The position numbers and the translations under genes are program-made. The notes under the pieces are model-generated. The model saw only the letters and a program-made list of their open reading frames with translations, was not told the DNA's origin and searched no databases. From positions 529,736 to 593,735 of the forward strand of contig OZ245056.1 in assembly GCA_965224705.1 (NCBI GenBank): a stretch of DNA of 64,000 bases. Direction: 5' to 3'. Below, piece by piece: positions 13,333 through 38,584 of the stretch (its first letter is position 1; the number at the start of each line of letters is the position of its first letter). Source of the stretch: Spirochaetaceae bacterium. GTDB taxonomy: Bacteria > Spirochaetota > Spirochaetia > DSM-2461.

Positions 13333-13338
13333 TGAGAA

Positions 13339-13420
13339 ACCAATTACGTGATTCTGTAATCACCCAAAAGTATTTTGATCGGCACCTCTGCCAGGCTCTG
13401 CCTGGCACGTCTGTGTTTTA
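13339..13420 (+). ncRNA. Predicted tracrRNA
   Basis: The anti-repeat ACCAATTACGTGATTCTGTAATC is imperfectly complementary to repeat positions 1-23 (GTTTCAGTAATCATGTAATTGGT). The tail CTGTAATCACCCAAAAGTATTTTGATCGGCACCTCTGCCAGG..CCTGGCACGTCTG strongly resembles the F. novicida tracrRNA/sgRNA scaffold as I remember it. It ends in the hairpin gccagg/cctggc followed by GTGTTTTA. Confidence 0.75.
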
Positions 13421-14035: not shown

Positions 14036-14282
14036 TCAAATAGCTGAAGCCGCGGCCGTTAAAATTCGTCCGGGTAATCAGGGTTTTATCCTCTTTTTTG
14101 ACCAGGTGACTGATGAAACGGCGTATTCCATTGAGTTCCGCCTGTGTCAGATATCCCCAGAACACCGATTTCTGCATGGGTTTAAGCCCATTTTTCGCCA
14201 GTTCATTGTAAACCTTCTTCCGTATCTTGTTATCTTCTATATCGTAGCAGACAAGGTATTCCTGTCTGAGAATCAATCCCAT
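13983..14282 (-). CDS. cas2: CRISPR-associated endoribonuclease Cas2
   Basis: 99 aa, with N-terminus YLVCYDIEDNKIRKKV typical of Cas2. It lies between cas1 and cas4. Confidence 0.9.
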   Translation of the reverse strand: MGLILRQEYLVCYDIEDNKIRKKVYNELAKNGLKPMQKSVFWGYLTQAELNGIRRFISHLVKKEDKTLITRTNFNGRGFSYLIGHKKKDFEDWKENCVI

Positions 14283-14286
14283 ACCA

Positions 14287-21391: not shown

Positions 21392-24300
21392 TTAACTGAA
21401 CCCGTTATTTCCAGTTCCCCCCGTCAGGCAATGCCGTGACGGTACAAACTGGAACCCTTTAACGGCATCCAGGGAAGCGGCACCGTCTTTATGCCGCAGC
21501 CACACCCGCTGCCAGGCCAGTTCGGTACCCCGTAACCGGGTGTAACGGCCGTTTTCATCTATTTCCAGCGACCACCACTGCCCGTCAGGATTTGTGCTCA
21601 TAATACAGGAGGGAAGGGACCGGTCCAGGGCCCAGATAATCTGCGTACCATCATCGGAGCCGGAGGCCAGGAGGCGGCCATCAGGGCTGAATGCCACACT
21701 CCCAACCCAGTCGGCATACCCTTCCAGGACGCCTTCGCATTCACCTCTCGCACTCCACAGTCTCACCGTTCCGTCAGCGGAGCCGGAAGCCAGTCGACGG
21801 CCATCAGGGCTGAATGCCACACTCCAAACCCAACTGGCATGCCCTTCCAGGACGGCTTCGCAATCTCCTTCCGCGCTCCACAGTCTCAGCGTTTTGTCAG
21901 AGGAGCCCGAGGCCAGGCGGCGGCCATCAGGGCTGAATGCCACACTCAAAACACTAGAGGCATGCCCTTCCAGGACGGCCAGGCAATCTCCTTCCGCGCT
22001 CCACAGTCTCAGCGTTTTGTCAGAGGAGCCGGAGGCCAGGCGGCGGCCATCGGGGCTGAATGCCACACTAAAAACCAAAACAGAATGTCCTTCCAGGACG
22101 GCTTCGCATTCTCCTTCTACGCTCCATAGTCTCAGCGTACCGTCAAAGGAGCCGGAGACCAGGCGGCGACCATCAGGGCTGAATGCCACACTATTGACTT
22201 TATTGGAATGTCCTTCCAGGACGGCTTTGCATTCACCTTCTGCGCTCCACAGTCTCAGTGTACAGTCATTGGAACCGGAGGCCAGGAGGCGGCCATCGGG
22301 ACTGAATCCCACACTCAAAACCCTGGCGGAATGCCCTTCCAGGACGGTTTTGCATTCGCCTTCTGAGTTCCACAGTCTCACCGTTCCATCATCGGAGCCG
22401 GAAGCCAGGCGTCCATCGGGGCTGAATCCCACACTCCAAACACTAGCGGAAGTCCCTTCCAGGACGGCTTTGCATTCTCCTTCCACGCTCCACAGTCTCA
22501 CCGTTCCATCATCGGAGCCGGAGGCCAGACGGCGGCCATCGGGGCTGAATCCCACACTAGAGACTCCACCTCTATGCCCTTCCAGGACACCTTCGCATTC
22601 TCCTTCCGCGCTCCACAGTCTCACCGAAGCGTCATCGGAGCCGGAGACCATGAGGCGTCCATCGGGGCTGAATCCCACACTAGAGACTCCACCTCTATGC
22701 CCTTCCAGGACACCTTCGCATTCTCCTTCCGCGCTCCACAGTCTCACCGTTCCGTCAGAGGTACCGGAGGCCAGGAGGCGGCCATCGGGGCTGAATGCCA
22801 CACTCATAACCCAGTCGGAATGCCCTTCCAGGACGGCTTCGCATTCTCCTTCCGCGCTCCACAGTCTCACCGTTCCGTCAGAGGAGCCGGAGGCTAGGCG
22901 GTGGCCATCAGGGCTGAATCCCACACTCCATACCCAATTGGAATGCCCTTCCAGGACGACTTCGCATTCGCCTTCCGCACTCCACAGTCGCAGCGTACCG
23001 TCAAAGGAGCCGGAGGCCAGGCGGCGGCCATCGGGGCTGAATGCCACATTACAAACCCTATCGGAATGCCCTTTCAGGACGGCTTCGCATTCTCCTTGCG
23101 CGCTCCACAGTCTCAGCGTTTTGTCATCGGAGCCGGAGGCCAGGCGGTGTCCATCTGGGCTGAATGCCACACTTCTAACCCTATCGGAATGCCCTTTCAG
23201 GACGGCTTCGCATTCTCCTTGCGCGCTCCACAGTCTCAGCGTTTTGTCATCGGAGCCGGAGGCCAGGCGGCGGCCATCGGGGCTGAATGCTATACTATAA
23301 ATTCTACCTCTATGGCCCCATGTTATATGATTCTTCGCGTAGGGCAGGGGCGAGACAGGTGCCATAGGGCGACCCGGATATATCCGGCTTCCCCTTTTTG
23401 CAAAAAGTCCGGGAATCGGCCCCTTCGCATTGACACAGGTCAGCCTTTGAGCATCCTGCTTCCCTTCTGTTCTCGTAACCCGGCATTCTTCCCATACCGA
23501 TTGATTGATGTTCGTTTCGTTCAACTCCAGCTCATCAATGCGGCATTCCTGCCAGCGGCAGAGAAGCATTTGACAGCGGGTTAGTACCAGTTTCCGGGCA
23601 CCGATGCCCCGAAGCTTTTCGCCGGACATATCGGCACCGAAGACATGAACCTTTTCAAATGCTTCAAAAGGCTGGCCCTCCTCCGCCGCGGATCGGATAA
23701 TTCGGAGCAGCAGGGCATCCTGATGCGGTGAATGGGCACTCTTTTCCGGCCGGGCGGCATAGGCCGCAAGCTGTGCATGCAGTTTTTTCCGCTCGCCGTC
23801 CTTCAGTAGAACAAGGGCCTCTCCAATGAACTTTTCCGTCAGGCGGGAAACGGGTTTGGCCAGGGAATAACCATCCTGTATCCACTGTGAGAGCAGTTTC
23901 CGGGCCAGGAAATACTCCTGCATGGAGCTGTGGGTAAAACCGAATTCATCCTCGCCGAATCGGAGCAGCAGGGTGGAATTGCGCAGATCCTTTTCGAGCT
24001 GTTCGCTGCCCTCCGTCTCATACTGGGCAAACATATTCCTGTCTCTGCGCAGCCATGTCTGGTACCAGTCGTTCAAATTGTCTATGTTCATGCGCTGTTC
24101 ACTGTTCTTCCAAAAATACAGGGCCATATCCTGGAGCAAACGGTGCTTATGGCGGGGCTTAAGAACATGTTTACGATCGCGATCCATTACATCAGCGATA
24201 AGGGCTTCATAGAACACGGCGGCATTGACGGGAATACCCTCCGACTGTATGGACTGGATGGACGGAAGCAAATCGGGCAGTTTACTCAGCAGGAGGGGAC

Positions 24301-26143
24301 GGCGTCCCAGGGCGGCCAGGTATTCCTCGCCGTCTATGTAATTCCACACCCGTAATGCCCCCTCCTTCCCCAGTTTCTTCTCCAGGAGCTGCCGCATCTT
24401 TCCATCCGAAAGGAGCAGTATTTCCATGGCCCGGTAGTCCCCCTGTTCAGCATCGGAGCGATAAAGGCCTCGCAGGAAACCGGCCTGCTTGTAAATCGTT
24501 TCAAAGTGATGACTCCGGCAGGAAATTACCGTCTTTACCTTTGACTCATCCCGCGTTTTCTCGGACGGAAACACCTTCATCAGTTCGCCTAGAAAACGGT
24601 CCTGCCTGTCGTCGGTATAGTAGACTAGCTTTTCATCCAGGCCGTCAAATATGGGAAGAACCCGTCCCTGTCTGACATCTTCAATAACCTTTTTCGGCAC
24701 GGCCCGAACCTCATGCTTTCGCAGCACCATTGCAATCATTTCGTTTAGAAGGGGAAGGCGTTTCGTGACTATGCCGTCTTTTATCTCTTCAACAAAGGTC
24801 TGTACCTCGCGTAAATCCATGTACAGGGGAATCGGCAGGGAAGAATCGTTTTTGCGTGCTTCCACCAGATGCTGGGCAAAAATACGGCAATTGAAGGTTT
24901 TGCCCATGCCGTAGTCGCCCAGTATTGTGTAAACGGGTTCCTTGCCATCTTTTGCCCAGCTCAGCATGTCGGGAACCAGTTCCCTGGATGGCCTTGACTG
25001 CCTTTCCTCATTGCCATCCTCTCTGTGGCGTCGTTTTTGTTCTGCCAGAAAGACTTTTTCCGTTGGGCTTAACATCAAAGTGCGTTGTGCCTCGGAACTT
25101 ACAAATTTTTCGGGAGAGTAATCTGGGTTGTTCTTATCTTTGCATTTTTCTAATTCTTTGTTCCGGGTTTTTTCACGCTCTTCTCTCTGTACCATGACTT
25201 CCTGAATATTCTTAATCAAACCATCGACAAATCGTTCCTGGAAATTGTCGGATTCGCATTTTCCCCAAAAAGCATCGGGATCAAGTCCCTGCTGATAGTA
25301 CGTGTGGATCGTCACTATTTTTCTGGTATTTTTTTTCCAGCCGGGAATCTTTCCTTTGAACCCCCTTTTCATAAGAGCAAAAAATTCTGAAGGTGTTTTT
25401 ACGCGACCATCCCACTTGGAATCCAGTCCGGCCACAAGGAGCTTGTCGTTCTGAAGCAGATAAGGGAATTCCTCTTCTGCAATGAATCGGCTGTCGAGGA
25501 AGGCCTGGGATAGGCAGGCCAGGCCAAAATCGGCTTCAGCCATCTTCTCCCTAATCTGTACCGCAAAATCCCGGCCCGGCAGCAGATGAGGCATTCGCCA
25601 AATACGGATGGGCCTTTTGGTACCCTTGCTTCGCTCCTCCAGTATCCGAGTAAGATCCCTGACTAATCTGTTGTCCTCATAGGCATAGCTGAGAAACAAT
25701 TTCAAGTCATTCTTGCCCAGGGGTTTGTCGTCCACATTCGAAACGTCATTGAAAACGAATTGTTCGCTGTTATACTGCCGGTTGGCATCCAGTAAGTTGC
25801 CAATCGGTTCGGAAGGGGCCTCAATGCTTATGCATCCGGGATTGGAAGCGGTTTTCTGATGGGTGATTATCTTTAGGGATTCCAGCACATCCTTCAAACC
25901 TCTGTCTTCCTGATTACCGGCGGCCGTTTTAATGGCTTCTCTAACCCGCCTGAGAAAGTTCCGGAAACTGCCGCCGGGGTTCTTCGCGTTGGCATAGATT
26001 TCCTGCACAGCCCGTTCGGTTTCCACCTTTCCGTCTTCAAGCAGGCGGACCAGCTTGTTCAGATTTTTAGAATCGGTCTTTCCCAACTCGTTAAGGCTAA
26101 GGAATTCGTCTATCACTTTTTCTATGGAAGTCATAAAAACCAT
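21392..26143 (-). CDS. TIR-NACHT-WD40 STAND NTPase (bacterial NLR-like, putative defence sensor/effector)
   Basis: TIR-like block KLFLSYAYEDNRLVRDL...ACLSQAFLDSRFIAEEEF. NACHT Walker A ILGDYGMGKTF and Walker B LPIFDGLDE. Fourteen C-terminal WD40 units (GHSxxVxSVAFSPDGxxLASGSxDxTxRLW). Confidence 0.85.
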   Translation of the reverse strand: MVFMTSIEKVIDEFLSLNELGKTDSKNLNKLVRLLEDGKVETERAVQEIYANAKNPGGSFRNFLRRVREAIKTAAGNQEDRGLKDVLESLKIITHQKTASNPGCISIEAPSEPIGNLLDANRQYNSEQFVFNDVSNVDDKPLGKNDLKLFLSYAYEDNRLVRDLTRILEERSKGTKRPIRIWRMPHLLPGRDFAVQIREKMAEADFGLACLSQAFLDSRFIAEEEFPYLLQNDKLLVAGLDSKWDGRVKTPSEFFALMKRGFKGKIPGWKKNTRKIVTIHTYYQQGLDPDAFWGKCESDNFQERFVDGLIKNIQEVMVQREEREKTRNKELEKCKDKNNPDYSPEKFVSSEAQRTLMLSPTEKVFLAEQKRRHREDGNEERQSRPSRELVPDMLSWAKDGKEPVYTILGDYGMGKTFNCRIFAQHLVEARKNDSSLPIPLYMDLREVQTFVEEIKDGIVTKRLPLLNEMIAMVLRKHEVRAVPKKVIEDVRQGRVLPIFDGLDEKLVYYTDDRQDRFLGELMKVFPSEKTRDESKVKTVISCRSHHFETIYKQAGFLRGLYRSDAEQGDYRAMEILLLSDGKMRQLLEKKLGKEGALRVWNYIDGEEYLAALGRRPLLLSKLPDLLPSIQSIQSEGIPVNAAVFYEALIADVMDRDRKHVLKPRHKHRLLQDMALYFWKNSEQRMNIDNLNDWYQTWLRRDRNMFAQYETEGSEQLEKDLRNSTLLLRFGEDEFGFTHSSMQEYFLARKLLSQWIQDGYSLAKPVSRLTEKFIGEALVLLKDGERKKLHAQLAAYAARPEKSAHSPHQDALLLRIIRSAAEEGQPFEAFEKVHVFGADMSGEKLRGIGARKLVLTRCQMLLCRWQECRIDELELNETNINQSVWEECRVTRTEGKQDAQRLTCVNAKGPIPGLFAKRGSRIYPGRPMAPVSPLPYAKNHITWGHRGRIYSIAFSPDGRRLASGSDDKTLRLWSAQGECEAVLKGHSDRVRSVAFSPDGHRLASGSDDKTLRLWSAQGECEAVLKGHSDRVCNVAFSPDGRRLASGSFDGTLRLWSAEGECEVVLEGHSNWVWSVGFSPDGHRLASGSSDGTVRLWSAEGECEAVLEGHSDWVMSVAFSPDGRLLASGTSDGTVRLWSAEGECEGVLEGHRGGVSSVGFSPDGRLMVSGSDDASVRLWSAEGECEGVLEGHRGGVSSVGFSPDGRRLASGSDDGTVRLWSVEGECKAVLEGTSASVWSVGFSPDGRLASGSDDGTVRLWNSEGECKTVLEGHSARVLSVGFSPDGRLLASGSNDCTLRLWSAEGECKAVLEGHSNKVNSVAFSPDGRRLVSGSFDGTLRLWSVEGECEAVLEGHSVLVFSVAFSPDGRRLASGSSDKTLRLWSAEGDCLAVLEGHASSVLSVAFSPDGRRLASGSSDKTLRLWSAEGDCEAVLEGHASWVWSVAFSPDGRRLASGSADGTVRLWSARGECEGVLEGYADWVGSVAFSPDGRLLASGSDDGTQIIWALDRSLPSCIMSTNPDGQWWSLEIDENGRYTRLRGTELAWQRVWLRHKDGAASLDAVKGFQFVPSRHCLTGGTGNNGFS
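21630..23325 (-). repeat. 14 tandem 123-bp WD40-coding units with very high DNA identity
   Basis: Adjacent units are nearly identical at the DNA level, for example 23041-23163 vs 23164-23286, and 22561-22680 vs 22681-22800. One unit is 120 bp. Confidence 0.85.
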
Positions 26144-26753: not shown

Positions 26754-27005
26754 ATGACAGATAAGAACACCAAAGACTCAAGCTTCATCCCTCAGACTTC
26801 ATCCTTTACTGATCGCTGGTTGTCTGTAGATGAAATTGGAGACTATCTCGGGATCAAGAGGGATACCGTTTATAAGTGGATAAACGAAAAAGATATGCCC
26901 GCTCATAAGATTGGCCGTCTTTGGAAATGCAAAAAAGACGCAGTTGATCAATGGGTGCGCAATGGCGGCGCTGATTCTTCAGATGAATCCGGCAAGGGAA
27001 AGTAA
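26754..27005 (+). CDS. Excisionase-family helix-turn-helix DNA-binding protein
   Basis: WLSVDEIGDYLGIKRDTVYKWINEKDMPAHKIGRLWKCKKDAVDQWV is the HTH_17/excisionase-type pattern. It is the first gene of the co-directional block. Confidence 0.7.
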   Translation: MTDKNTKDSSFIPQTSSFTDRWLSVDEIGDYLGIKRDTVYKWINEKDMPAHKIGRLWKCKKDAVDQWVRNGGADSSDESGKGK

Positions 27006-27038
27006 AGCGATATGATGGAAGGATAAACGGGCGACAAG

Positions 27039-30000
27039 ATGAAAATCCTGGACAATATAAATAACCTTTGGGGAAATGACCTGAAGGAGACTCTTAAGCC
27101 AGGTGCAAAACTGAAAATTGCAGCCTCATGCTTTTCTATCTATGCATTTGAAGCCCTTAAAAAAGAGCTCGAAAAAATTGATTCGCTTGAGTTTATCTTT
27201 ACGGCTCCGACGTTTGTTCCTAATGAAGTGACCGACAAGGTATCCAAAGAGCGTCGGGAATTTCATATTCCGAAGCAGCAGCGTGAGCGAAATCTCTATG
27301 GCAGCGAGTTTGAAATACAGCTTAAAAACAAACTGACGCAACGTGCCATTGCCAAAGAATGCGCTGGCTGGATTAGACGCAAAGCCTGCTTTCGATCAAA
27401 TTCCATAAAAGCACCGATGCAGCAATTTGCATGTTTAAATAAAGGCGATGCTGCTGCTGTATATATGCCGCTTCATGGCTTTACAGCAGTCGATCTTGGC
27501 TACCAGCAAGGTAATGCCGTCTCGAATTTTATAAGCAAATTTGACGATGCTCCTTCAACGCAGACATGGCTGAATCTTTTTAATCAGATATGGAAAGATT
27601 CTTCAAAACTAAAAGATGTGACAGATGCCATTTGCACACATATCGAATCCGTTTATCAGGAGAATCCTCCCGAAAAAATCTATTTTCTAATGCTCTATAA
27701 CATCTTCAACGAGTTCCTTGAGGACCTGAATGAAGATCTCCTTCCAAATGATTTGACTGGATACAAAAACAGTGTTGTCTGGAATAAGCTGTTTAACTTC
27801 CAAAAGGATGCAGTAACCGGGATTATAAATAAGCTTGAGAACTTTAACGGATGCATTCTTGCAGACAGTGTCGGGCTCGGTAAAACCTTTACTGCACTTG
27901 CAGTGATTAAATACTACGAACTACGCAATCGCTCAGTACTGGTTTTATCCCCGAAAAAACTTGCTGACAACTGGTTGAACTATAACCAAAACCTAAAAAC
28001 AAATATTCTGGTTAAAGACCGTTTGAATTATGAGGTTCTTTGCCACACGGATTTACAGCGCACAAGTGGGGAATCTTTTGGAACACCGCTGGACAGAATT
28101 AACTGGGGCAATTATGATCTCGTGGTCATTGATGAGTCACACAATTTCAGAAACAACGATGCTTACAAGGATAAGGAAACCCGATACCAAAAACTGATGA
28201 ATTCTGTCATTAGAGATGGGGTTAAAACAAAAGTCTTAATGCTTTCTGCAACACCGGTCAATAACAGATTCAATGACCTTAGAAACCAATTGGCATTGAC
28301 ATACGAGGGCGAGTCAGAAAAACTGAGTAGTAAATTAAGGACCGGAAAAAAAGTTGAAGAAATTTTCCGGCACGCACAGACTGTATTTAATTCATGGGCA
28401 AAGCTGCCAGCAGATAAACGCACAGCCAGAGCAATACTGGATGCTCTTGATTTTGATTTTTTTGAGCTGCTTGATAGCGTAACCATTGCCCGGTCCAGAA
28501 AACACATAGAAACTTTCTATGATACTGCGTATATCGGCAAGTTTCCTGTAAGACGCAAACCCATATCTTTCCGCTGCCCACTGACTTCCCGTAAGGACGT
28601 CATGAGTTTTAATGAAATTTATGAACATCTAATGGAAATAAAGCAATCTGTTTATATTCCTATGTTATATGTTTTTGAAAGTAGAAAATCAAAATATGAA
28701 AACCTTAACGAAGGTAAAAAATATGATAGTCAGTTTTTGCAAGCTCAAGCAAACGGTATAAAAAAACTCATGGCTACTAATCTACTCAAAAGATTAGAAA
28801 GCTCAGTAAATTCTTTCCGTATAACACTTAATACAATGAAAGAAAAAATTAAAGAAAAACTATCTGAAATTGATGAACTCAATAAGATTCAATTATCTTC
28901 TGTGATTAGTGACGATTGGGAAGATGAAGACACGGATGGTGTTTTGGAAACACAAGCAAATTCTAAAATCGAAATAGACCTTGCTGACATTGATTTAGAA
29001 TCATGGAAAAGAGACTTAGAAGAAGACCAGACTCTGGTTGAATTACTCCATGAGGAAATGGAAAAAATATCTCCTGAAGATGACACCAAGCTCCAACACC
29101 TTAAATCTCACATTAAAAACAAAATCAAACAACCCATAAACTCTGGAAATAAAAAGATCATTATCTTTACGGCTTTCGCAGATACTGCGAGCTACCTTTA
29201 CGACAACCTCTGTGATGAACTATTAAAAATTGGAATACACGCTGGAAAAATTACCGGAAAAGATATTCCTAAAACCACACTGAGCCAATTGAACAAAAAA
29301 CGGGGATATGGCTTTCAGTCTATCCTCACCCTTTTCTCCCCGATATCGAAAGAAAAAGCACTGACTCTTCCTGAAGAGCACAGTGAAATTGACTTACTTA
29401 TAGGTACGGACTGTATTTCTGAAGGGCAGAATCTACAGGATTGCGATTATCTAATCAACTACGACATTCACTGGAACCCTGTCCGTATTATTCAACGATT
29501 TGGGCGTATCGACCGTATCGGCTCCCCAAACGAATCCATCCAACTGGTTAACTACTGGCCTGATATTTCTCTGGATGAATACATCAATCTGAAAGAGCGG
29601 GTGGAGAACAGGATGGTCATTGACGATGTTACGGCCACCGGAGACGACAATGTACTTTCGGGCCAGTCCAATGATGTCAGCTATCGAAAAGAACAGCTCC
29701 GCCGTCTTCAGGATGAAGTGATCGATCTTGAAGACCTGAAAACTGGTGTAAACATAACTGACCTCGGACTCAATGACTTCCGCATGGACCTAATCAACTA
29801 TATCAAGAGCAACAGTGACTTAGATCATTTACCTAATGGACTCCACGCTATCGTCGCAGCCAATGAGAATATAGGGTTACAACCGGGAGTGATATTTACA
29901 CTCCGGAATAGAAATTCGGGCGTCAACATCAATCAGCATAACCGGCTGCATCCGTATTATCTCATCTACATCAACGACGATGGTCAGGTCATTACTGACC

Positions 30001-30293
30001 ACACACAGGTCAAACAACTTTTGGACTTGGTACGAACAAGCTGCAAGGGGAAGGAAGTGCCTTTTACTGATTTATGCTCTACCTTTAATCGTGAGACCAA
30101 CGACGGAAGAAATATGCTGAAATATTCAGAACTTCTCGGCCAGGCAATCCGAACGATGATTGAGATCAAAGAAGACAAGGATATCGACAGTCTGTTTTTA
30201 GGAACGAATACAACGGCATTGGTAGACACTATTCATGGACTGGATGATTTTGAACTGATTTCCTTCTTGGTCGTCAAGGAGGATACAACATGA
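27039..30293 (+). CDS. SNF2-family helicase with an extra ~250-aa N-terminal domain (PLD-like fold suspected, no HKD motif)
   Basis: Motif I LADSVGLGKTF, II VVIDESHNFRN, III MLSATPVNN, V/VI LIGTDCISEGQNLQ...WNPVRIIQRFGRIDRIGS. The N-terminus LKIAASCFSIYAFEALKKELEKIDSLEFIFTAPTF is typical of the helicase-related proteins found next to DUF4391. Confidence 0.85.
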   Translation: MKILDNINNLWGNDLKETLKPGAKLKIAASCFSIYAFEALKKELEKIDSLEFIFTAPTFVPNEVTDKVSKERREFHIPKQQRERNLYGSEFEIQLKNKLTQRAIAKECAGWIRRKACFRSNSIKAPMQQFACLNKGDAAAVYMPLHGFTAVDLGYQQGNAVSNFISKFDDAPSTQTWLNLFNQIWKDSSKLKDVTDAICTHIESVYQENPPEKIYFLMLYNIFNEFLEDLNEDLLPNDLTGYKNSVVWNKLFNFQKDAVTGIINKLENFNGCILADSVGLGKTFTALAVIKYYELRNRSVLVLSPKKLADNWLNYNQNLKTNILVKDRLNYEVLCHTDLQRTSGESFGTPLDRINWGNYDLVVIDESHNFRNNDAYKDKETRYQKLMNSVIRDGVKTKVLMLSATPVNNRFNDLRNQLALTYEGESEKLSSKLRTGKKVEEIFRHAQTVFNSWAKLPADKRTARAILDALDFDFFELLDSVTIARSRKHIETFYDTAYIGKFPVRRKPISFRCPLTSRKDVMSFNEIYEHLMEIKQSVYIPMLYVFESRKSKYENLNEGKKYDSQFLQAQANGIKKLMATNLLKRLESSVNSFRITLNTMKEKIKEKLSEIDELNKIQLSSVISDDWEDEDTDGVLETQANSKIEIDLADIDLESWKRDLEEDQTLVELLHEEMEKISPEDDTKLQHLKSHIKNKIKQPINSGNKKIIIFTAFADTASYLYDNLCDELLKIGIHAGKITGKDIPKTTLSQLNKKRGYGFQSILTLFSPISKEKALTLPEEHSEIDLLIGTDCISEGQNLQDCDYLINYDIHWNPVRIIQRFGRIDRIGSPNESIQLVNYWPDISLDEYINLKERVENRMVIDDVTATGDDNVLSGQSNDVSYRKEQLRRLQDEVIDLEDLKTGVNITDLGLNDFRMDLINYIKSNSDLDHLPNGLHAIVAANENIGLQPGVIFTLRNRNSGVNINQHNRLHPYYLIYINDDGQVITDHTQVKQLLDLVRTSCKGKEVPFTDLCSTFNRETNDGRNMLKYSELLGQAIRTMIEIKEDKDIDSLFLGTNTTALVDTIHGLDDFELISFLVVKEDTT

Positions 30294-30952
30294 GTTCGCT
30301 ATACAACTTCCCAAAGGCAGCTGCATTGGGAAGGATGCTTGCCAAAAGTAAAATCTACGATCACGCCGCGCCGAGCAGCAAGGTAAAGGAGCTGTTCGTC
30401 AAGGAGGTTGAAAAGATCATCTGGTCACACAAACTCTCTCCGACAACGATTAACCTTCCAGCCAGTGATGGCGTCCAGGAGATTCAGGTTTTCTCCATAC
30501 TATTAAGGACCGGGGAACTGTCGCAGGAAGTTCTGCACACAATAGACAAGGCAATACCTTCTCCCATTCTGTTTGAATTGAAATATGGCGGTAAAACCAA
30601 ATATGCCGCCAGTTACAAACGGCCCAGCGAGGTTGACAAAAAAAAGCGGGTGGTCAGCAGTTATTTCCTCTCCGACTGGATGAAGGAAGATGGTCCGGCA
30701 TCCGAACTTCCGGTGCTGCTCAATATGGGCGCTCTTTATCAGTCGTTTTTGACAAGTCTCAGTCCTCTTTCTTTCCGGCAAGGGGAGAAGCTGGGCGACT
30801 TGGCCGCAAGAGTTGACCTGCTGCGTATCAAAGAACGCGAAGCTGAAAAGGTGGAGAGCCGGATAAAGAGGGAGAAGCAGTTTAATCGACGAGTGGAACT
30901 GAACCGCACATTGAATGTGTTGAAGGCTGAGATAGAAGAAATGAGAAGATGA
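30290..30952 (+). CDS. DUF4391-like protein
   Basis: 220 aa. The start overlaps the SNF2 stop (ATGA). The N-terminal FPKAAALGRMLAKSKIYDH pattern, the size and the position next to an SNF2 gene match my recollection of DUF4391. This was not verified by search. Confidence 0.6.
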   Translation: MSSLYNFPKAAALGRMLAKSKIYDHAAPSSKVKELFVKEVEKIIWSHKLSPTTINLPASDGVQEIQVFSILLRTGELSQEVLHTIDKAIPSPILFELKYGGKTKYAASYKRPSEVDKKKRVVSSYFLSDWMKEDGPASELPVLLNMGALYQSFLTSLSPLSFRQGEKLGDLAARVDLLRIKEREAEKVESRIKREKQFNRRVELNRTLNVLKAEIEEMRR

Positions 30953-31204
30953 ACCGCGAAAAGCGCGAAATACGCGAAAAGGTTTTGTTTTTTGATGAAT
31001 GCTGTGTTATTCAGGGGGATGTTTTTTTTGTATAAAGAGATGGGGTGTGGCTTCCTGATAGAAGGATTGAGAAGATGAACCGCGAAAAGCGCGAAATACG
31101 CGAAAAGGTTTTGTTTTTTGATGAATGCTGTGTTATTCAGGGGGATGTCTTTGATGTGTATAAAGAGAGATGGGGTGTGGCTTCCTGATAGAAGGAATGA
31201 GAAG
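30949..31204 (+). repeat. Two decayed tandem copies (126 and 130 bp) of the 5' end of the GxxExxY gene
   Basis: ATGAACCGCGAAAAGCGCGAAA... recurs at 30949, 31075 and 31205. Copies 1 and 2 encode MNREKREIREKVLFFDECCVIQGD... and terminate after 28 and 37 codons. Confidence 0.85.
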
Positions 31205-31639
31205 ATGAACCGCGAAAAGCGCGAAACACACGGAAAGGTTTTGTTTCCTGAGGAATCCTATGCCATTCAGGGAGCTATCTTTGATGTGTATAAAGAGATG
31301 GGTTGTGGCTTCCTGGAGGCTGTCTATCAAGAATGTCTGGATAAGGAGTTGTCTAAACGAGACATTCCGTTTCAACCGCAAGTAGAGCTTCAGCTTAATT
31401 ATAAAGGTGAAAAGCTGAATCAGACCTATAAACCGGATTTTATCTGCTACGACAAAATCGTTGTTGAGATAAAAGCAGTAAAAGAACTGACATCTGAACA
31501 TAAGGCGCAACTCTTAAACTACCTCAAAGCCACCGGGCTTGAATTAGGACTGCTCGTCAACTTTGGCAGCCACCCAAAAATTGAAATTATACGAATTGCT
31601 AATACAAACTTTCGCGATTTTCGCGCATTTCGCGGTTAA
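31205..31639 (+). CDS. GxxExxY protein (PD-(D/E)XK-superfamily small protein common in R-M loci)
   Basis: MNREKRETHGKVLFPEESYAIQGAIFDVYKEMGCGFLEAVYQECL contains the signature GFLEAVY. I start at 31205 rather than the tracked 31118, which runs through a decayed repeat copy. Confidence 0.8.
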   Translation: MNREKRETHGKVLFPEESYAIQGAIFDVYKEMGCGFLEAVYQECLDKELSKRDIPFQPQVELQLNYKGEKLNQTYKPDFICYDKIVVEIKAVKELTSEHKAQLLNYLKATGLELGLLVNFGSHPKIEIIRIANTNFRDFRAFRG

Positions 31640-31651
31640 GGAGACACAAAA

Positions 31652-33688
31652 ATGGAAAAATTAAAAATGCACAGCCCTAACTTTGCAGAAGAAAATATCG
31701 CAAAGCTGGCGGAGCTGTTCCCAAACTGCGTTACTGAAAAAGAAGAAACCGCGAAAGACGCGAATGAACGCGAAAAGATGGTTTTGAAAAGAACCATTGA
31801 TTGGGATTTGCTCAAACAAGAGTTGTCCAACGACATTGTTGAAGGGCCACAGGAGCGCTACCACCTGAACTGGCCCGGCAAACGGAAAGCACTGCTTACG
31901 GCCAATGCGCCCATTGCCAAGACGCTCCGCCCTTGCCGCGAAAAGAGTGTGGATTTCGACACCACCGAAAACCTCTTTATTGAAGGGGATAATCTCGATG
32001 CCCTGAAACTTCTACAGGAAACCTATCTCGGCAAAGTAAAGATGATCTATATCGATCCGCCGTATAACACTGGTAAGGATTTTATCTACGCTGACAACTT
32101 TGCAAAATCCACGGAAGAATACTTGCTGGATTCCAGGCAAAAAGATGAAGAAGGTAACCGTCTCATTGCCAATACTGACTCCAATGGCCGCTTCCATTCA
32201 GACTGGCTGAGCATGATGTATCCACGGCTTAAATTGGCCAGAAACCTGCTCAAAGATGATGGAGTGATTTTTATTAGTATTGATGAAAATGAAATTGGGA
32301 ATATTGAAAAAGTTGTCACAGAAATCTTTGGCTCCGAAAATTTTCTTGGAAGTTTTCCTGTAGTAATGAACTTAAAAGGAAACCAAGATTCCTTTGGTTT
32401 CGCTGAGACTCATGAATATGTTGTTATCGCCTCAAAAAACAAAATACTCTGTAGTTTTAATCATTTTCCGATTGATGATGAGGAATTTAACAAAGCATGG
32501 TTTTCTGATGAATATGGGCCTTATAAAGAAGCGGATAATTTAAGGGCTACCGGTGTAAATGCACCGAGAGAAAAGAGACCAAACTTATGGTACCCAATTT
32601 TCTTAGATGAGAGTAAATTGGAATACTATGCAACAGATGACGATAAGCCTAAAGATAGTGCTCATACAAAAGTTTTGCCAATCAGCCCCAATGGTGAGGA
32701 ACTAAGTTGGTACTGGAGTAAAAACAATTTGAATCAAAACAAACACAATCTTATCTTAAAGAAGACATCAAACGGTTGGCAGTTTTACAAAAAACAACGA
32801 CCTCAAATTGGTGATTTACCAAGCAAAAAACCAAAATCATTTTTTTACAAACCTGAGTATAGTACAAGTACGGCAACAACCCACCTTAAAGTATTGCTTG
32901 AGTGCAAATTGTTTAATGGCCCTAAACCAGTACCATTCCTTAAAGACTTGGCTATTATTGGAACAAATGATAAAGACATCATCCTAGACTTCTTCGCTGG
33001 CTCCGCCACAACCACCCATGCAGTGATGCAGCTCAATGCCGAAGACGGAGGCAAGCGTAAGTTCATCATGGTTCAGCTCGCCGAAGCCTGTGATGAAAAA
33101 TCCGAGGCATTCAAAGCAGGCTATAAAACCATCGCCGAAATCAGCAAGGAACGTATCCGCCGTGCCGGGAAACAATTGACAATGAAAGGTGAAAACCATT
33201 CTCAATTATCAACTGTCAATTCTCCATTGGATATTGGTTTCCGCATCCTCAAGGTCGACTCCTCCAATATGGCCGATGTGTACTATACACCGGATGCCGT
33301 TGAACAAAAAGAACTCCCATTTTCTACCGATAACATCAAAGACGACCGCAGTTCCGAAGACCTGCTCTTCCAGGTATTATTGGACTGGGGAGTTGATTTA
33401 ACTTTGCCGATTTCTCGCGAAATCATCAAAGTTAAGAAGGATGAAAAAGACGAAAGCAAAGATTCATCCTTTCAAAAATACGAAGTATTCTTCGTGGATG
33501 GCAATGCACTGGCGGCCTGTTTCGAAAAAAGCGGCAGGATCACCGAGAATTTTTGCAAAGAACTCGCCGGGCGGCAGCCGTTGCGTGTTGTCTTCCGGGA
33601 CTCCGGCTTTAAGGACGACAGTGCCAAAATAAATGTAGAGCAGATATTCAAACTAATGAGTCCGCATACGGATGTGAAAACAATTTGA
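31652..33688 (+). CDS. mod: Type III-like (beta-class) N6-adenine/N4-cytosine DNA methyltransferase, Mod
   Basis: Motif IV MIYIDPPYNTGKDF precedes motif I ILDFFAGSATTTHAV. Typical Mod N-terminus SPNFAEENIAKLAELFPNCVTE. AGGAG RBS. Confidence 0.9.
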   Translation: MEKLKMHSPNFAEENIAKLAELFPNCVTEKEETAKDANEREKMVLKRTIDWDLLKQELSNDIVEGPQERYHLNWPGKRKALLTANAPIAKTLRPCREKSVDFDTTENLFIEGDNLDALKLLQETYLGKVKMIYIDPPYNTGKDFIYADNFAKSTEEYLLDSRQKDEEGNRLIANTDSNGRFHSDWLSMMYPRLKLARNLLKDDGVIFISIDENEIGNIEKVVTEIFGSENFLGSFPVVMNLKGNQDSFGFAETHEYVVIASKNKILCSFNHFPIDDEEFNKAWFSDEYGPYKEADNLRATGVNAPREKRPNLWYPIFLDESKLEYYATDDDKPKDSAHTKVLPISPNGEELSWYWSKNNLNQNKHNLILKKTSNGWQFYKKQRPQIGDLPSKKPKSFFYKPEYSTSTATTHLKVLLECKLFNGPKPVPFLKDLAIIGTNDKDIILDFFAGSATTTHAVMQLNAEDGGKRKFIMVQLAEACDEKSEAFKAGYKTIAEISKERIRRAGKQLTMKGENHSQLSTVNSPLDIGFRILKVDSSNMADVYYTPDAVEQKELPFSTDNIKDDRSSEDLLFQVLLDWGVDLTLPISREIIKVKKDEKDESKDSSFQKYEVFFVDGNALAACFEKSGRITENFCKELAGRQPLRVVFRDSGFKDDSAKINVEQIFKLMSPHTDVKTI

Positions 33689-33702
33689 GGAAAGCTTTTA
33701 AA

Positions 33703-35163
33703 ATGAAGGATAAAAACACCCTAATCGATTTACTAAAAGAGTTGCGCAGTTTGCCGAATGAGTGCGAATGGGCTGAGTTCAAACAGAATAATGCCAAACC
33801 TGAACAAATTGGTGAATATATTTCAGCTTTGGCAAATGGTGCGGCGCTTAACGGCAAAGCCAATGCCTATATGCTTTGGGGTGTAGAAGACAGCAATCAC
33901 GATGTGGTTGGGACTACATTTTCTCCAGCATCAGAAGAAATTGGCGGTGAGGAGTTGGAAAGCTGGTTACTGCGCCTCTTAACTCCAAAAATCAATTTCA
34001 GATTTTACACAATTCCTTTCGATGATAATGTCGTAGTTTTACTAGAGATCGGAGCAGCTTTTCAACACCCTGTTCAATTCAAGAATATCGAATATCTTCG
34101 TATAGGGTCCTATAAGAAAAAGTTAAAAGACTACCCAGAAAAAGAGCGGGAACTTTGGCGGATATTTGATCGTGTTCCTTTCGAAAAAGAGATCGCTTTA
34201 GAAAATATTTCTTCGGAACAGGTTCTGAAGTTATTAGATTATCCCGCCTATTTTGACTTGCTTTCACTTCCTTTGCCCGAAAAGCATCAGGGTATTTTGG
34301 ATGCTCTTGAGTCTGAAGCGATGATTTGTAAAGGATTGGCTGGTAAATGGAACATCAATAATCTGGGAGCCGTTCTTTTTGCACGCAAACTCAGTGATTT
34401 CAATAGTCTTCGTCGTAAAGCCATTCGTGTTATCCTATATAAAGGTGAAACTCGAGTTGAAACGATTCGAGAACAAGAAGGTGTTAAAGGGTTAGCTGTT
34501 GGTTTTGAAGGTTTGATTGAATATATACAGAATCTGCTTCCAAGTAACGAAGTAATCGGCCAATCGCTGCGCAAAGAAGTTTCCATGTTTCCTGAACTGG
34601 CAATCCGTGAGTTGCTTGCCAATGCTATTATTCACCAAGACTTCCACATCACAGGCACTGCCCCTATGGTGGAAATATTTTCAAGCCGAATGGAAATTAC
34701 CAATCCTGGGTTGCCCTTGGTTAACACAGAACGATTCCTGGATAGTCCACCGAGATCCCGCAATGAAGCCATAGCCTCTTTTATGCGACGTGTCGGTGTG
34801 TGTGAAGAACGTGGCAGTGGTATCGATAAAGTTGTTTCCGAAACAGAACGCTACCAATTGCCAGCACCTATTTTTGAACAGACACAAGAACATATACGCG
34901 TTGTGTTATTTGCTCATAGAGAATTCAGAAATATGGACAAGCAGGATAGAATTCGAGCCTGCTACCTTCATGCTTGTTTGCGATATGTACAACGAGATTA
35001 CATGACGAATAGTACACTGCGTGAGCGTTTTGGCATTGAAGAAAAAAACAGCTCAATGGCTTCCAGGGTTATTAAAGATGCAATAGATGCTAATGCTATC
35101 GTGCCCTATGGCAGCCAAGCTTCGCGGAAATTTATGAAATACGTACCATGGTGGACTCAATGA
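33703..35163 (+). CDS. AlbA_2 (Schlafen-like) plus HATPase_c_4 plus C-terminal wHTH protein (putative ATP-binding regulator)
   Basis: ECEWAEFKQNNAKPEQIGEYISALANGAALNG..YMLWGVED (AlbA_2), ELAIRELLANAIIHQDF (HATPase_c_4-like) and the C-terminal LRERFGIEEKNSSMASRVIKDAIDANAIVPY. I start at the ATG at 33703, which has a GAGGAA RBS. Confidence 0.7.
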   Translation: MKDKNTLIDLLKELRSLPNECEWAEFKQNNAKPEQIGEYISALANGAALNGKANAYMLWGVEDSNHDVVGTTFSPASEEIGGEELESWLLRLLTPKINFRFYTIPFDDNVVVLLEIGAAFQHPVQFKNIEYLRIGSYKKKLKDYPEKERELWRIFDRVPFEKEIALENISSEQVLKLLDYPAYFDLLSLPLPEKHQGILDALESEAMICKGLAGKWNINNLGAVLFARKLSDFNSLRRKAIRVILYKGETRVETIREQEGVKGLAVGFEGLIEYIQNLLPSNEVIGQSLRKEVSMFPELAIRELLANAIIHQDFHITGTAPMVEIFSSRMEITNPGLPLVNTERFLDSPPRSRNEAIASFMRRVGVCEERGSGIDKVVSETERYQLPAPIFEQTQEHIRVVLFAHREFRNMDKQDRIRACYLHACLRYVQRDYMTNSTLRERFGIEEKNSSMASRVIKDAIDANAIVPYGSQASRKFMKYVPWWTQ

Positions 35164-35171
35164 TACTTTTA

Positions 35172-35370
35172 TTTGACGGCTATTTGACTGAGAATGAGTA
35201 CTCAAGGACCTCATCTCCATGTAAAGCATTGTTTATGAGATATTTAAGTATTGTGGCTTTCTTTGACTGTTGTTTGACTGAAGCAACGAAACTCCTCCTG
35301 TTATTAAAATTTAACTCTTTGAATAGTAGATATTTATCCTTTGATTTTTTATTTGACCGTTGTTTGACTG
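35172..35370 (+). promoter_or_regulatory. Three phased iteron-like sites (TTTGACnGYTRTTTGACTG) spaced exactly 90 bp apart
   Basis: tttgacggctatttgactg (35172), tttgactgttgtttgactg (35262) and tttgaccgttgtttgactg (35352). Within each site the two TTTGAC hexamers are 11 bp apart. Confidence 0.5.
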
Positions 35371-35491
35371 GAATCAGTTTAATTCAAAGGCGACCTTCGT
35401 TGATTTCGGCCAAGACACGCTCATGTTTTTCGTACCTTCCGTGGTTAAAAAATCATTCTGTTTGTTCAGTGGTTATAAATGGTGGCATTGT

Positions 35492-38400
35492 ATGAAGTTA
35501 AAATTTAAAAAACAGCCCTACCAGACACGAGCCGTTGAATCGGTAGTCGATTGCTTTAAGGGCCAGCCAAATACACCCGATATCAGTTATCGGATTGACC
35601 CGGGTGTATCAAAGACGGAGAAAACTTATTTGGCTGAAGATCAACTGAGTATGGGATATGATTTTCATGAATCCGGCTTTAGAAATGGCGATATTTTTCT
35701 CACCGAACAGCAACTTCTTGAAAATATTCAGAAAGCCCAGCGTCTTCAGAATCTGCCGCAATCAGCCAGCCTTATCAAAACCAAGGTGTCATCGTTAAAC
35801 CTTGACGTGGAGATGGAGACCGGAACCGGAAAGACTTACTGCTACATAAAAACCATCTTTGAGATGAACAAGCGCTTCGGCTGGACAAAGTTTATTATCG
35901 TGGTGCCCAGTATCGCCATCCGGGAAGGTGTTTATAAATCATTGGAGATTACAGCAGAACACTTTCAGGAAACTTACGCCAAGAAAGCCAGGTTTTTCAT
36001 CTATAACTCCAAACAGCTTCACAACCTTGAGAGCTTTTCTTCAGATGCCGGAATCAACGTTATGGTTATCAACGTTCAGGCGTTTAATGCCCGGGGCAAA
36101 GATAACCGTCGAATCTATGAAGAGTTGGATGACTTCCAAAGCCGCCGCCCCATTGATGTGATTAAGGCGAATCGCCCGATTCTGATTCTCGACGAACCGC
36201 AGAAGATGGAAGGCGCAAAGACGCTGGACTCACTCAAGGAATTTAATCCGCTATTTATCCTGCGTTATTCGGCTACACATAAAACCCAGCATAACAAGGT
36301 TCACAGGCTGGATGCACTGGATGCCTACAATCAGAAGCTGGTTAAAAAGATAGCTGTCCGGGGTATCTCCGTAAAAGGGCTCTCCGGCACCAACGCCTAT
36401 CTCTATCTTGAATCCATTGAAGTGTCGAAGCAGATGCCGGTGGCCCGAATAGAAATTGAGGTCAAGCAGAACAGCGGAATCAAGAGAATAATCCGCAAGC
36501 TGAAAAAAGGCGACAATCTCTACGACCTATCCGACGATCTGGATCAATACAAGGGCTTTGTGATTGCGGATATCAATGCCATTACTGATACCGTTGAATT
36601 CACCAATGGCCTCGGGCTGCAGGCCGGAGAAGCAACCGGTGATGTGAATGAAACAGCTCTCCGGCGCATCCAGATACGCGAAGCCATAAAAGCCCATTTT
36701 GAAAAGGAACAGGTCCTCTATTATCAGGGCATTAAAGTACTGACTCTTTTCTTTATCGATGAAGTCGCCAGGTATCGGATTTATACCGATGCCGGAGAAG
36801 AAGGCGGCGAATATGCCCAAATATTTGAAGAGGAATACAAGGATGCCTGGAATGAGCTGAAGCAGGATATGTTTATGCACGAAGGCTACAAAAAGCATCT
36901 GGACAGCATTCCTGTAGATCAAACTCACAACGGTTATTTTTCCATAGACAAGAAAAGCAAACGCATGGTCGATCCGGCCACCGGCAAAAAATCGACTGAA
37001 GCGGATGATGCCGATGCCTACGACCTGATTCTTAAAGACAAAGAGCGTCTTCTCTCATTCGATGAACCAACCCGCTTTATCTTCTCCCACTCTGCTCTCC
37101 GTGAAGGTTGGGACAACCCGAATGTGTTCGTTATCTGCACCTTGAAACACAGTGATAGTACCATTTCACGCCGACAGGAAGTCGGTCGTGGGTTGCGTAT
37201 CGCCGTTAATCAGTTTGGGGATCGTCAGGATGATCCGGCAACTGTTCATCAGACAAATGTACTGACAGTCGTGGCCAGTGAAAGCTACAAGGACTTTGTG
37301 ACCGCTTTGCAACGCGATATCAGTGAATCACTCTCTGAGCGTCCACGAGTTGCGGATGTAAAATACTTCACGGGAAAGGTTCTGCAGACAGCCGACGGCA
37401 CAATTGAAGTGACGGAGGACATGGCAGAAGGAATTGAATTCTATCTGATACAAAATGGTTATGTTGATCGTGAGAGAAACATTGTTCAGAAGTACCATGA
37501 TGAGCTTAAAAATGGAGAACTTTCTGATTTGCCGGAAGATTTATTACCGTTCAAGGAACAGGTCTTCCAACTGATTGATAGCGTCTACAGTGATGCCAAG
37601 CTACCGGAGGTTGAAAATGATCGCGGAGCAAAGACAAATCCTCTAAACGTCAATTTTGAAAAGAAAGAGTTCAAAGAACTCTGGAATCGGATCAATCGAA
37701 AAGCGGCTTACAGTGTGCATTTTGATAGTACTGAGCTGGTAGGGAAATGCATTCAGACGTTCAATAAGGAACTGCGGGTTATGCCGCTTCAATACACCGT
37801 GCAGCGAGGTGAGCAAGCTGATGGCATTAGCTATGATCTGATGAAGTCAGGGGATAGTTTTGATATAAAGGAAACCTCTACCGAATACACTGCCCACTCA
37901 ATTCACTCAGCAGTGAAATACGACCTGATCGGCAAGATAGCTGAAAACGTGCAGTTAACCAGACGAACTGTTACTGAGATTTTATTAGGACTGGGAAAGC
38001 CGGTATTTGCCCAGTTTAATACCAACCCGGAGAGCTTCATCTCTGAAGCCGCGCGCCTAATTCAGGAACAGAAAGCCGCATGTATCACCGAGCACCTGAG
38101 TTACGATGCTGTATCCGAAACTCATGACATTGATATCTTCACCAACGGGCAAAGCAAACAGGATTTCAGCAAAGCCGGAGACCCGCTTAAACGTCACATT
38201 TATGATTACGTCGTAACCGATTCAGATACTGAACGCACCTTTGTTCAGGAGCTTGATACCAGTTCGGAAGTGGTTGTGTACGCCAAGTTACCTAAAGGAT
38301 TTTCCATACCCACGCCGGTTGGAAACTACAATCCCGACTGGGCTATCTCCTTTAAAGAAGCTTCCATTAAGCATGTTTACTTTGTTGCCGAAACCAAAGG

Positions 38401-38584
38401 TTCCATGTCCAGCTTGGAATTCCGGGAAATCGAAAAAACAAAGATTGAATGCGCCCGCAAGTTCTTTGATGAAATCAACCGCAAGATAAATCCGGACAAT
38501 GTGAGATACGATGTGGTGAGCAGCTTTGGAAAACTCATGGAGATTGTCGGACCCGGAACATCCGCATTTCATTGGGGTGGATGA
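35492..38584 (+). CDS. res: Type III restriction enzyme Res subunit (helicase plus PD-ExK nuclease)
   Basis: N-terminus [18 protein letters not shown]. Helicase motifs [18 protein letters not shown] and RYSATHK. C-terminal nuclease motif YNPDW...YFVAETKGS. The start at 35492 is preferred over the tracked TTG at 35360. Confidence 0.9.

Follow-up and report, generated by a model that had tools for sequence, protein, structure and literature searches.

Which of the seven genes that make up an extended Type III restriction–modification (R-M) locus in a Spirochaetaceae bacterium belong to one system, and what could the genes added to its mod–res core be doing there? The locus occupies positions 26754–38584 of a 64,000-nucleotide (nt) stretch of DNA, hereafter the window (contig OZ245056.1 of assembly GCA_965224705.1, positions 529,736–593,735, forward strand). 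An earlier note, made from the DNA letters, had described it as a candidate multi-component defence system of seven co-directional, tightly packed genes. We find that the cassette at its heart is a Type III R-M core joined to an SNF2-based accessory module. In the best reading, the locus holds a copy of an R-M cassette of four genes that co-evolve and move horizontally, and in which an SNF2-family ATPase and a DUF4391 protein work with the methyltransferase Mod and the endonuclease Res, a reading to which we give a rough probability of 0.7. The open reading frames (ORFs) and their Pfam matches confirm the seven co-directional genes (aa, amino acids; HTH, helix–turn–helix):

26754–27005, + strand: HTH_17 / excisionase-type HTH protein, 83 aa (Pfam HTH_17 7e-16)
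27039–30293, + strand: SNF2-family ATPase, 1084 aa (Pfam SNF2-rel_dom and Helicase_C; PADLOC C3a139 'HKD+Snf2')
30290–30952, + strand: DUF4391 protein, 220 aa (Pfam PF14335 2.4e-56)
31205–31639, + strand: GxxExxY / PDDEXK_3 protein (Pfam PDDEXK_3 3e-44; TIGR04256 2.9e-43)
31652–33688, + strand: Type III Mod, 678 aa (Pfam N6_N4_Mtase 2.6e-35; PADLOC MTase_III 1.5e-216)
33703–35163, + strand: AlbA_2/HATPase_c_4 protein (Pfam SLFN_AlbA_2 3.4e-17, HATPase_c_4 9.3e-23)
35492–38584, + strand: Type III Res, 1030 aa (Pfam ResIII, RE_endonuc 4e-34; PADLOC REase_III 1122.8 bits)

The ATGA overlap between the SNF2 stop codon and the DUF4391 start at 30290–30293 is real, and DUF4391 is predicted to be translationally coupled to SNF2 through it. 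The close packing holds elsewhere in the locus but is broken at two places, by a gap of 252 nt after DUF4391, which is occupied by a triplicated 5' fragment of the GxxExxY gene, and by one of 328 nt upstream of res. Three starts allow a choice. The longest ORF of the GxxExxY gene begins with a TTG at 31118 and the AlbA_2/HATPase_c_4 gene has an alternative TTG start at 33685, while the Res start at 35492 corresponds to Met45 of an ORF that opens with a TTG at 35360; the PADLOC REase_III model starts at this Met45.

To see which of these genes are kept together elsewhere, we used a sample of 58 loci from species-representative genomes, obtained by a DUF4391-seeded search with two conserved peptide patterns and annotated with the proteins of the window. 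About 15 plasmid loci were compared as well. The conserved unit consists of four genes in the fixed order SNF2–DUF4391–Mod–Res, whose recurrence over 58 independent genome loci goes beyond chance. SNF2 lies directly upstream of DUF4391 in all loci with enough flanking sequence (53/53), and among the 34 loci whose downstream flank is 6.5 kb or longer, Mod is present in 32 and Res in 31. The linkage of SNF2/DUF4391 to Mod/Res, on which the earlier note had made its proposal depend, is conserved across phyla. The bacterial loci come from Desulfobacterota, Spirochaetia, Gammaproteobacteria (Psychrobacter, Fluoribacter), Actinomycetota, Bacteroidota, Campylobacterota and Patescibacteria and the archaeal ones from Methanosarcinaceae and Thermoplasmatales, the cassette ranges from Desulfobacterota to Methanosarcinales, and it is also carried by plasmids of Escherichia coli, Listeria, Enterococcus, Acinetobacter and Bacillus cereus. 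The gene order is kept at a DUF4391 identity of 24% (Weissella) and at an SNF2 identity of about 40% (Aeromonas, Paraburkholderia, Listeria, Lactococcus).

The four proteins also vary together. In a comparison of their pairwise-identity matrices over 31 complete loci, the Pearson correlation is 0.95 for SNF2–DUF4391, 0.94 for SNF2–Res and 0.93 for DUF4391–Res, and 0.77–0.79 for the pairs that involve Mod. The lower values for Mod are likely to be due to variation of its target-recognition domain.

The association was then approached from the side of Res. When 72,556 plasmids were searched by tblastn, Res matched 286 records and DUF4391 matched 41. DUF4391 is present on 38 of the 40 plasmids that carry the closest Res proteins (at least 52% identity), and at the sensitivity of this tblastn search on none of the 246 plasmids with a more distant Res, which include many from E. 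coli, Klebsiella and Salmonella. The SNF2 family is found at full length on 110 plasmids. The SNF2-seeded loci that were inspected in Listeria, Lactococcus, B. cereus, Aeromonas hydrophila and Paraburkholderia hold the full cassette, as does the Weissella locus from the DUF4391-seeded search. The reciprocal overlap of Res and DUF4391, together with the SNF2-seeded loci, indicates that this Res subfamily and the SNF2–DUF4391 pair form one evolutionary unit.

Incomplete loci show an asymmetry. Mod and Res occur without the pair, for example on Aeromonas veronii plasmid pHX3 (Mod–AAA–DUF4276–Res, with neither SNF2 nor DUF4391) and on Clostridium plasmid pCt3, which has Mod–Res only. No intact SNF2–DUF4391 pair without at least Mod was seen in the inspected loci. 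In two decayed loci that have neither Mod nor Res (L008 and L030), SNF2 is fragmented and accompanied by transposase or cargo genes only. The Desulforapulum copy of the cassette has no Res. A locus from a Kaistella metagenome-assembled genome (MAG; L057) is rearranged to AlbA_2–Mod–GIY-YIG–GmrSD–GmrSD–SNF2–DUF4391–OLD(AAA_15/TOPRIM)–UvrD and also contains no Res.

The closest genome relative, with 84% DUF4391 identity, is found in a Spirochaetia MAG (L001, 10001–20659). Its cassette is internally duplicated and reads Mod, AAA_21 plus another gene, a DUF4391 fragment, GxxExxY, a second Mod, RhuM, a Mod fragment and Res.

The cassette is highly mobile, being found on plasmids and in integrase-linked islands, and it occurs in its bare four-gene form in ten complete E. 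coli genomes (plasmid pLAO18, L059, plus nine others). A megablast search of the locus DNA against E. coli genomes gave no match. The DNA of these copies has diverged too far, and it was protein searches that found them. These cassettes adjoin repA on IncFIB plasmids of about 110–180 kb, while one copy, in strain GPEC996, is chromosomal. Plasmid pLAO18 also encodes DnaE and a LAGLIDADG endonuclease. In the Prokaryotic Genome Annotation Pipeline (PGAP) the four E. coli genes are called 'helicase-related protein', 'DUF4391 domain-containing protein', 'site-specific DNA-methyltransferase' and 'type III restriction-modification system endonuclease'.

The Type III core of the window locus is predicted to be complete, and every motif that had been quoted for SNF2, Mod and Res was found at its place. 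In Mod, DPPYNTG at residue 135 precedes FAGSATT at residue 448, which is the β-class motif order, and Mod is therefore predicted to be an N6-adenine DNA methyltransferase of the β class. Res carries ETGTGKT at residue 109, LDEPQ at 233, SAT at 260, PDW at 948 and AETK at 966, as expected for a superfamily 2 (SF2) ATPase with a C-terminal PD-(D/E)XK endonuclease domain, and the PADLOC REase_III model covers it over its full length. With E-values of 4.2e-59 for Mod against EcoP15I Mod (4zcf_A) and 2.9e-82 for Res against EcoP15I Res (4zcf_C), both are true full-length homologues of the subunits of EcoP15I and lack none of the catalytic motifs, in agreement with the earlier suggestion of an intact Type III core inside a multi-gene defence locus. 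Against the NCBIfam Type III equivalog PRK15483, Res scores 389.6 bits, below the cut-off of 564, which places it in a distinct subfamily.

The SNF2 protein consists of an N-terminal domain (residues ∼1–250), a motor (∼250–850) and a C-terminal region that is conserved yet has no Pfam match. The motor motifs GLGKT (residue 279), DESH (365), SAT (403) and QRFGRIDRIGS (819) are invariant across 48 homologues and the motor is intact. PADLOC model C3a139 'HKD+Snf2' matches the protein over its full length (1.9e-113). The N-terminal 264 residues, which gave no match in a Pfam search, retain 47–89% identity even where DUF4391 is only 29–37% identical. An AlphaFold2 model of this domain (mean pLDDT, the predicted local distance difference test, of 72.9) retrieves only phospholipase D (PLD) superfamily structures in Foldseek: SauUSI (3e-5) and NgoAVII R (3e-4), with phosphatidylserine synthase, FAM83, PPK1 and Tdp1 as further matches. 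Alignments of 36 and 52 sequences contain neither an invariant histidine nor an HxK motif in this domain, as had been noted from the absence of HxK(x)4D, and His76 is replaced by Phe, Tyr, Val, Glu or Leu among homologues. Judged from the model, the domain adopts a PLD fold minus the catalytic nucleophile. As no histidine is invariant, it is probably not a nuclease and probably serves as a binding or dimerization module. The loop of residues 60–88 (window 27216–27302), in which Phe75, Ile77, Pro78, Glu83 and Gly88 are conserved and the pLDDT is below 50, is a candidate interface for DNA or for a partner protein.

DUF4391 is matched by Pfam PF14335 with 191.7 bits (cut-off 29.9), residues 6–214 spanning the whole profile. 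The family is large, comprising 2392 clusters at 50% identity (E ≤ 1e-3). The AlphaFold2 model (pLDDT 94.8) has an α/β domain (residues 1–160) followed by a long C-terminal helical hairpin (residues 168–219) that bears the conserved KQFNRRVELN motif. A profile search against PDB sequences found no match, and Foldseek with the full model gave a best PDB E-value of 0.046, with nothing below 0.04 in the PDB or BFVD. No convincing nuclease motif is apparent in the protein. DUF4391 is the fastest evolving of the four, with a median all-pairs identity of 39% compared with 65% for SNF2, 59% for Res and 53% for Mod. Such fast evolution suggests that DUF4391 may face phage-derived partners.

Mentions of DUF4391 in the full-text literature amount to a table entry and a slip for DUF7941. 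Three gene fusions were considered and set aside. In a PglZ::DUF4391 fusion (P0208; 795 aa, L062 1940–4327), which might have been a functional clue, the DUF4391 part begins at profile position 32 and Mod and Res follow, for which reasons we judged it to be a deletion chimera; a deletion probably joined a BREX pglZ gene to a four-gene cassette. A second HTH gene and a partial gene lie further downstream in this locus. Fusion P0242 was dismissed as a deletion derivative of SNF2, and P0178 was dismissed with a C-terminal part unrelated to Mod.

No named system covers the cassette in PADLOC or NCBIfam, as the earlier note had supposed, and PADLOC has no model for DUF4391. The name of C3a139 goes back to a 2018 survey of genes beside type III CRISPR loci (Shah et al.), where a four-member 'HKD+Snf2' cluster was listed with no function assigned (PMC6546367). 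We found no paper on an SNF2–DUF4391–Mod–Res association in the full-text literature, subscription journals, supplementary tables and REBASE lying outside the search; papers on SNF2 together with Type III and PLD or defence gave analogues only, and Makarova 2013 contained nothing relevant. Within the limits of this search the four-gene cassette is apparently undescribed.

The cassette shares with Type III R-M systems such as EcoP15I and EcoP1I the motif order, the combination of SF2 ATPase and C-terminal PD-(D/E)XK domain and the position of mod upstream of res. The classical systems consist of two genes, whereas here a conserved SNF2 and DUF4391 are added. DISARM class 1 (DrmD SNF2, DrmMI methylase, DrmA/DrmB and DrmC PLD) similarly has, within a single operon, an SNF2 helicase together with a methylase for N6-adenine, an element of PLD fold and another SF2 helicase, and its DrmD is the best NCBIfam match of the cassette SNF2, although the score against NF038317 is 147.6 bits for a cut-off of 610 and only residues 568–842 are aligned. 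The hallmarks of DISARM and BREX are absent from the cassette, as had been predicted. Pfam finds no DUF1998 among its ORFs, a phmmer search of B. cereus DrmA and DrmB against all ORFs of the window gave no match, and Pfam and PADLOC find no PglZ, BrxC or PglX of BREX among the cassette ORFs. The cassette further differs from DISARM in that its PLD element is fused to SNF2 and is without the HKD histidine of DrmC, that its methylase is a Type III Mod and that the Res nuclease is present.

On B. cereus plasmids such as pJ75_1 (L068/L071, NZ_AP022971.1 50789–64531), DrmA and DrmB lie directly upstream of the cassette with a gap of 33 bp, and in pJ75_1 a PDC-S68 gene and an integrase are found further upstream. 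The fetched stretch contains neither DrmC nor a DISARM methylase. DISARM and Type III parts may thus form a hybrid here, with PLD-like, SNF2 and methylase functions contributed by the cassette, and the junction shows that the cassette is a module able to combine with DISARM parts. No linkage to DrmA or DrmB is seen in the 58 genome loci or in the window.

Several other systems follow a related logic. ARMADA type II (ArmA Snf2, ArmB PglX-like methylase, ArmC YprA helicase and ArmD) combines a Snf2 translocase, a methylase and a second SF2 helicase with a nuclease; it gives non-abortive defence, for which each of its four genes, that of the Snf2 helicase included, was shown to be essential (PMC12458937). 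Its methylase and helicase (YprA/DUF1998) belong to families other than those in the cassette, and it has no DUF4391. Hma, or BR type 2, has the same N-terminal PLD(HKD)–Snf2 helicase architecture, alongside an N6-methylase and a small stand-alone α+β protein, DUF3780 (PMC12839542). The cassette lacks both the DUF499 ATPase and DUF3780, HmaA matches the cassette SNF2 in the C-terminal part of the helicase only (PADLOC, 9.5e-23), and the HKD of BR type 2 is regarded as the active effector, whereas the cassette is without that histidine. AbiR of Lactococcus lactis, compared here by description, contains an HTH-like protein, a small DNA-binding protein and a Snf2 ATPase with a restriction-endonuclease-like N-terminal domain, and it is methylase-dependent and toxic without the methylase (PMC13064643); it differs in having a ParB-like partner and in that its methylase is that of a separate Type II system. 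SauUSI, to which the N-terminal domain of SNF2 is structurally closest, likewise has a PLD domain followed by an SF2 motor, but is a Type IV enzyme in a single polypeptide with an active HKD and a methylated-cytosine target-recognition domain.

The remaining three genes of the window locus are not part of the conserved unit. An HTH homologue directly upstream of SNF2 was detected with a hidden Markov model in 14 of 57 loci, scattered across several lineages, and the gene is probably an optional upstream regulator of the cassette. The protein scores 73.2 bits against NCBIfam MAD1 (NF047737), below the cut-off of 80, and 63 bits against the 'excise' domain; apart from this sub-threshold MAD1 match, PADLOC found no further component of MADS. 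The GxxExxY and AlbA_2 genes occupy positions that are filled by other genes elsewhere. Insertions are seen at the SNF2/DUF4391, DUF4391/Mod and Mod/Res junctions and comprise RhuM, Fic/SoFic, SIR2_2, AAA_21, 23S_rRNA_IVP four-helix-bundle, KilA-N, GxxExxY and AlbA_2/HATPase_c_4 genes. The two genes of the window are therefore variable cargo, and they probably act as independent back-up effectors.

GxxExxY genes are present in only four of the 58 related loci, at varying positions. In the window, the gene is preceded by partial copies of itself and flanked by 28-nt inverted repeats (AACCGCGAAAAGCGCGAAATACGCGAAA / TTTCGCGATTTTCGCGCATTTCGCGGTT), while a second set of repeats is found upstream of res, in the gap that follows the Schlafen gene:

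30905–31315, + strand: tandem repeat, three copies of 128–130 bp, the triplicated 5' end of the GxxExxY gene
35172–35370, + strand: TTTGACN3TNTTTGACTG, three copies at an exact 90-bp spacing

The first two copies of the GxxExxY tandem are degenerate and the repeat begins in the last codons of DUF4391. The inverted-repeat motif occurs once more within mod (sites: 31610–31637, 31747–31764). The inverted repeats and the triplicated 5' end look like traces of an insertion of the GxxExxY gene, and suggest that the gene itself is mobile or that it was inserted by recombination at CGCGAAA repeats. The TTTGAC element (three observed against 0.03 expected) has no further copy in the window and none in the 73 fetched loci; the array may be an operator or promoter array that controls res. 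A promoter scan returned promoter-like sites no more often than in shuffled sequence, an Rfam scan of 26–39 kb of the window found no match, and the excess of terminator-like signals in the scan corresponds to the GxxExxY repeat, with none on the coding strand between the core genes.

The AlbA_2 protein retains the Schlafen motif Ex4ExK (ECEWAEFK at residue 20), a form of the Ex4(E/D)xK of its class, beside a GHKL-type ATPase domain and, as judged from its domains, is a prokaryotic Schlafen of the HisKinase(-HTH) class. Its C-terminal 87 residues give no HTH-like Pfam match at E ≤ 1, and a winged HTH there is expected from the published architecture. The same AlbA_2–HATPase_c_4 architecture is found in the Mod/Res slot of locus L004, and weaker AlbA_2-like matches in that of L017 and L055. 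The earlier note had seen in this protein a Schlafen-like sensor attached to the R-M system. It belongs instead to an already known class: Schlafen-HisKinase(-HTH) is the second commonest architecture among 5,930 prokaryotic Schlafens, of which some with other architectures provide phage defence (bioRxiv 10.1101/2025.07.24.666596). Schlafen-HisKinase-HTH genes are reported from within the BREX and BR loci of at least 1017 taxa (PMC12839542), and are described as stand-alone or embedded auxiliary effectors (PMC12839542; bioRxiv 10.1101/2025.07.24.666596).

How could the four proteins act together? Mod would methylate one strand of an asymmetric site and thereby mark self DNA, and, in the manner of EcoP15I, a Mod2Res complex would cut invading DNA that is unmodified once ATP had triggered communication over a long range. 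SNF2 and DUF4391 would form a second, non-nucleolytic complex that translocates on double-stranded DNA and acts with Mod/Res rather than alone. The dependence of the pair on Mod/Res is suggested by the asymmetry between Mod–Res, which exists alone, and the intact pair, which was not found without Mod. That the pair modifies what Mod/Res does is suggested by analogy with DISARM class 1, Hma/BR type 2, AbiR and ARMADA, and the cassette would mirror systems in which an SNF2 helicase is a required part (ARMADA) or a typical one (DISARM class 1 and Hma/BR). Its most likely role would be to extend or secure restriction, in principle by driving or licensing encounters between Res complexes, by clearing DNA-bound obstacles or by sensing phage interference via DUF4391. 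The more specific proposal that the pair, its motor guided by DUF4391 as a fast-evolving adaptor of novel fold, lets Mod–Res restrict DNA that otherwise escapes (single-site, one-orientation or protein-coated), or that DUF4391 senses anti-restriction proteins and switches the motor on, is a tentative one. The functions suggested in the earlier note, sensing of modified or unmodified phage DNA and anti-anti-restriction, are speculative.

Several observations weigh against a working partnership of the pair with Mod/Res. Sampling with two peptide patterns could over-represent the canonical arrangement. Mod–Res persists alone on pHX3 and pCt3, so the pair is dispensable for basic R-M function. The Kaistella locus, with an intact pair and Mod but no Res, hints at an activity of the pair on its own. 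DUF4391 has no recognizable fold or catalytic motif and its role is a guess. A different task is also conceivable, in which SNF2–DUF4391 is a safety or regulatory module, not one of attack, and shields the host against the Type III enzyme that it carries, for instance by stripping stalled Mod–Res from unmodified host sites after replication or damage (restriction alleviation) or by helping Mod to reach occluded sites in a new host. In favour of this, the pair is found intact only with Mod, SNF2 is fragmented where Mod and Res are both missing, Mod–Res can stand alone, and a cassette of such high mobility has to become established in naive hosts. RapA and other SNF2 enzymes remodel protein–DNA complexes, and with no catalytic histidine in its PLD domain the cassette SNF2 is probably a remodeller too and not a nuclease. 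The speed at which DUF4391 evolves (39% median identity against 59–65% for Res and SNF2) is better suited to an arms-race interface than to housekeeping, and ARMADA, the one tested system of similar gene logic, needs its SNF2 gene for defence itself, which leaves a purely protective role rather unlikely.

It is less likely still that the pair and the Type III enzyme are two independent systems that travel together and possibly share only the methylation mark. Defence genes do cluster, and the window also contains a type II-B CRISPR-Cas locus and a TIR-NACHT-WD40 gene; cargo genes insert between the two halves, the Kaistella pair lacks Res and members of the SNF2 family have been found beside type III CRISPR loci (Shah et al. 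2018, PMC6546367). Random island neighbours do not, however, keep a pattern in which an intact pair is never seen without at least Mod, in which bacterial phyla and archaea alike have the genes in one order and orientation, in which the co-phylogeny is as strong as r = 0.93–0.95 and in which a Res subfamily is almost co-extensive with DUF4391 (38/40). Nor do all seven genes appear to form one obligate system with a Schlafen-like sensor and PDDEXK_3 as an extra nuclease, as the earlier note would have it. This is suggested by their co-directional, close spacing in the window and by the AlbA_2 genes between Mod and Res in three further loci (L004, L017, L055), and is very improbable: most loci have neither cargo gene, many (those on the E. 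coli plasmids, for instance) consist of the bare four genes, unrelated genes fill the same slots, Schlafen-HisKinase-HTH genes also occur in BREX/BR loci and on their own, and the GxxExxY gene has insertion-like features in its terminal inverted repeats and triplicated 5' end. The comparative data largely refute it. The four-gene cassette with a co-operating SNF2–DUF4391 pair remains the reading that we prefer.

Annotation pipelines and defence finders currently see a 'Type III R-M' system plus two unexplained genes. If the pair is required for restriction or modifies it, many apparently plain Type III systems would be four-component machines and predictions of plasmid and phage host range would be affected. 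The cassette would also offer a simpler model than DISARM or BREX for SNF2 translocases in methylation-based immunity, since its nuclease partner Res is already well understood. Should the pair indeed change the action of the Type III enzyme, the cassette would have to be counted as a fifth class, by architecture, of ATP-dependent R-M, and thousands of genomes, with clinical plasmids among them, would carry it. The bare copies in E. coli genomes make the role of the pair directly testable in that host.

The seven-gene locus sits inside a defence island. Downstream lie metabolic genes (KdgT, PdxA and others, from Pfam), while a TIR-NACHT-WD40 gene and a type II-B CRISPR-Cas locus are found upstream. 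The latter (12589–20053, genes on the − strand) contains a Csx12-type Cas9 (1609 aa, 15224–20053), Cas1 (14287–15246), Cas4 (13418–14035) and a repeat array at 12589–13219 with a period of about 74 bp. The TIR-NACHT-WD40 protein (1583 aa, 21392–26143, − strand) is an immune sensor of the signal transduction ATPases with numerous domains (STAND) type. The DNA that codes for its WD40 part (21643–23290) is a tandem repeat with a 123-bp unit, 13.4 copies and 85% matches, an unusual regularity at the DNA level.

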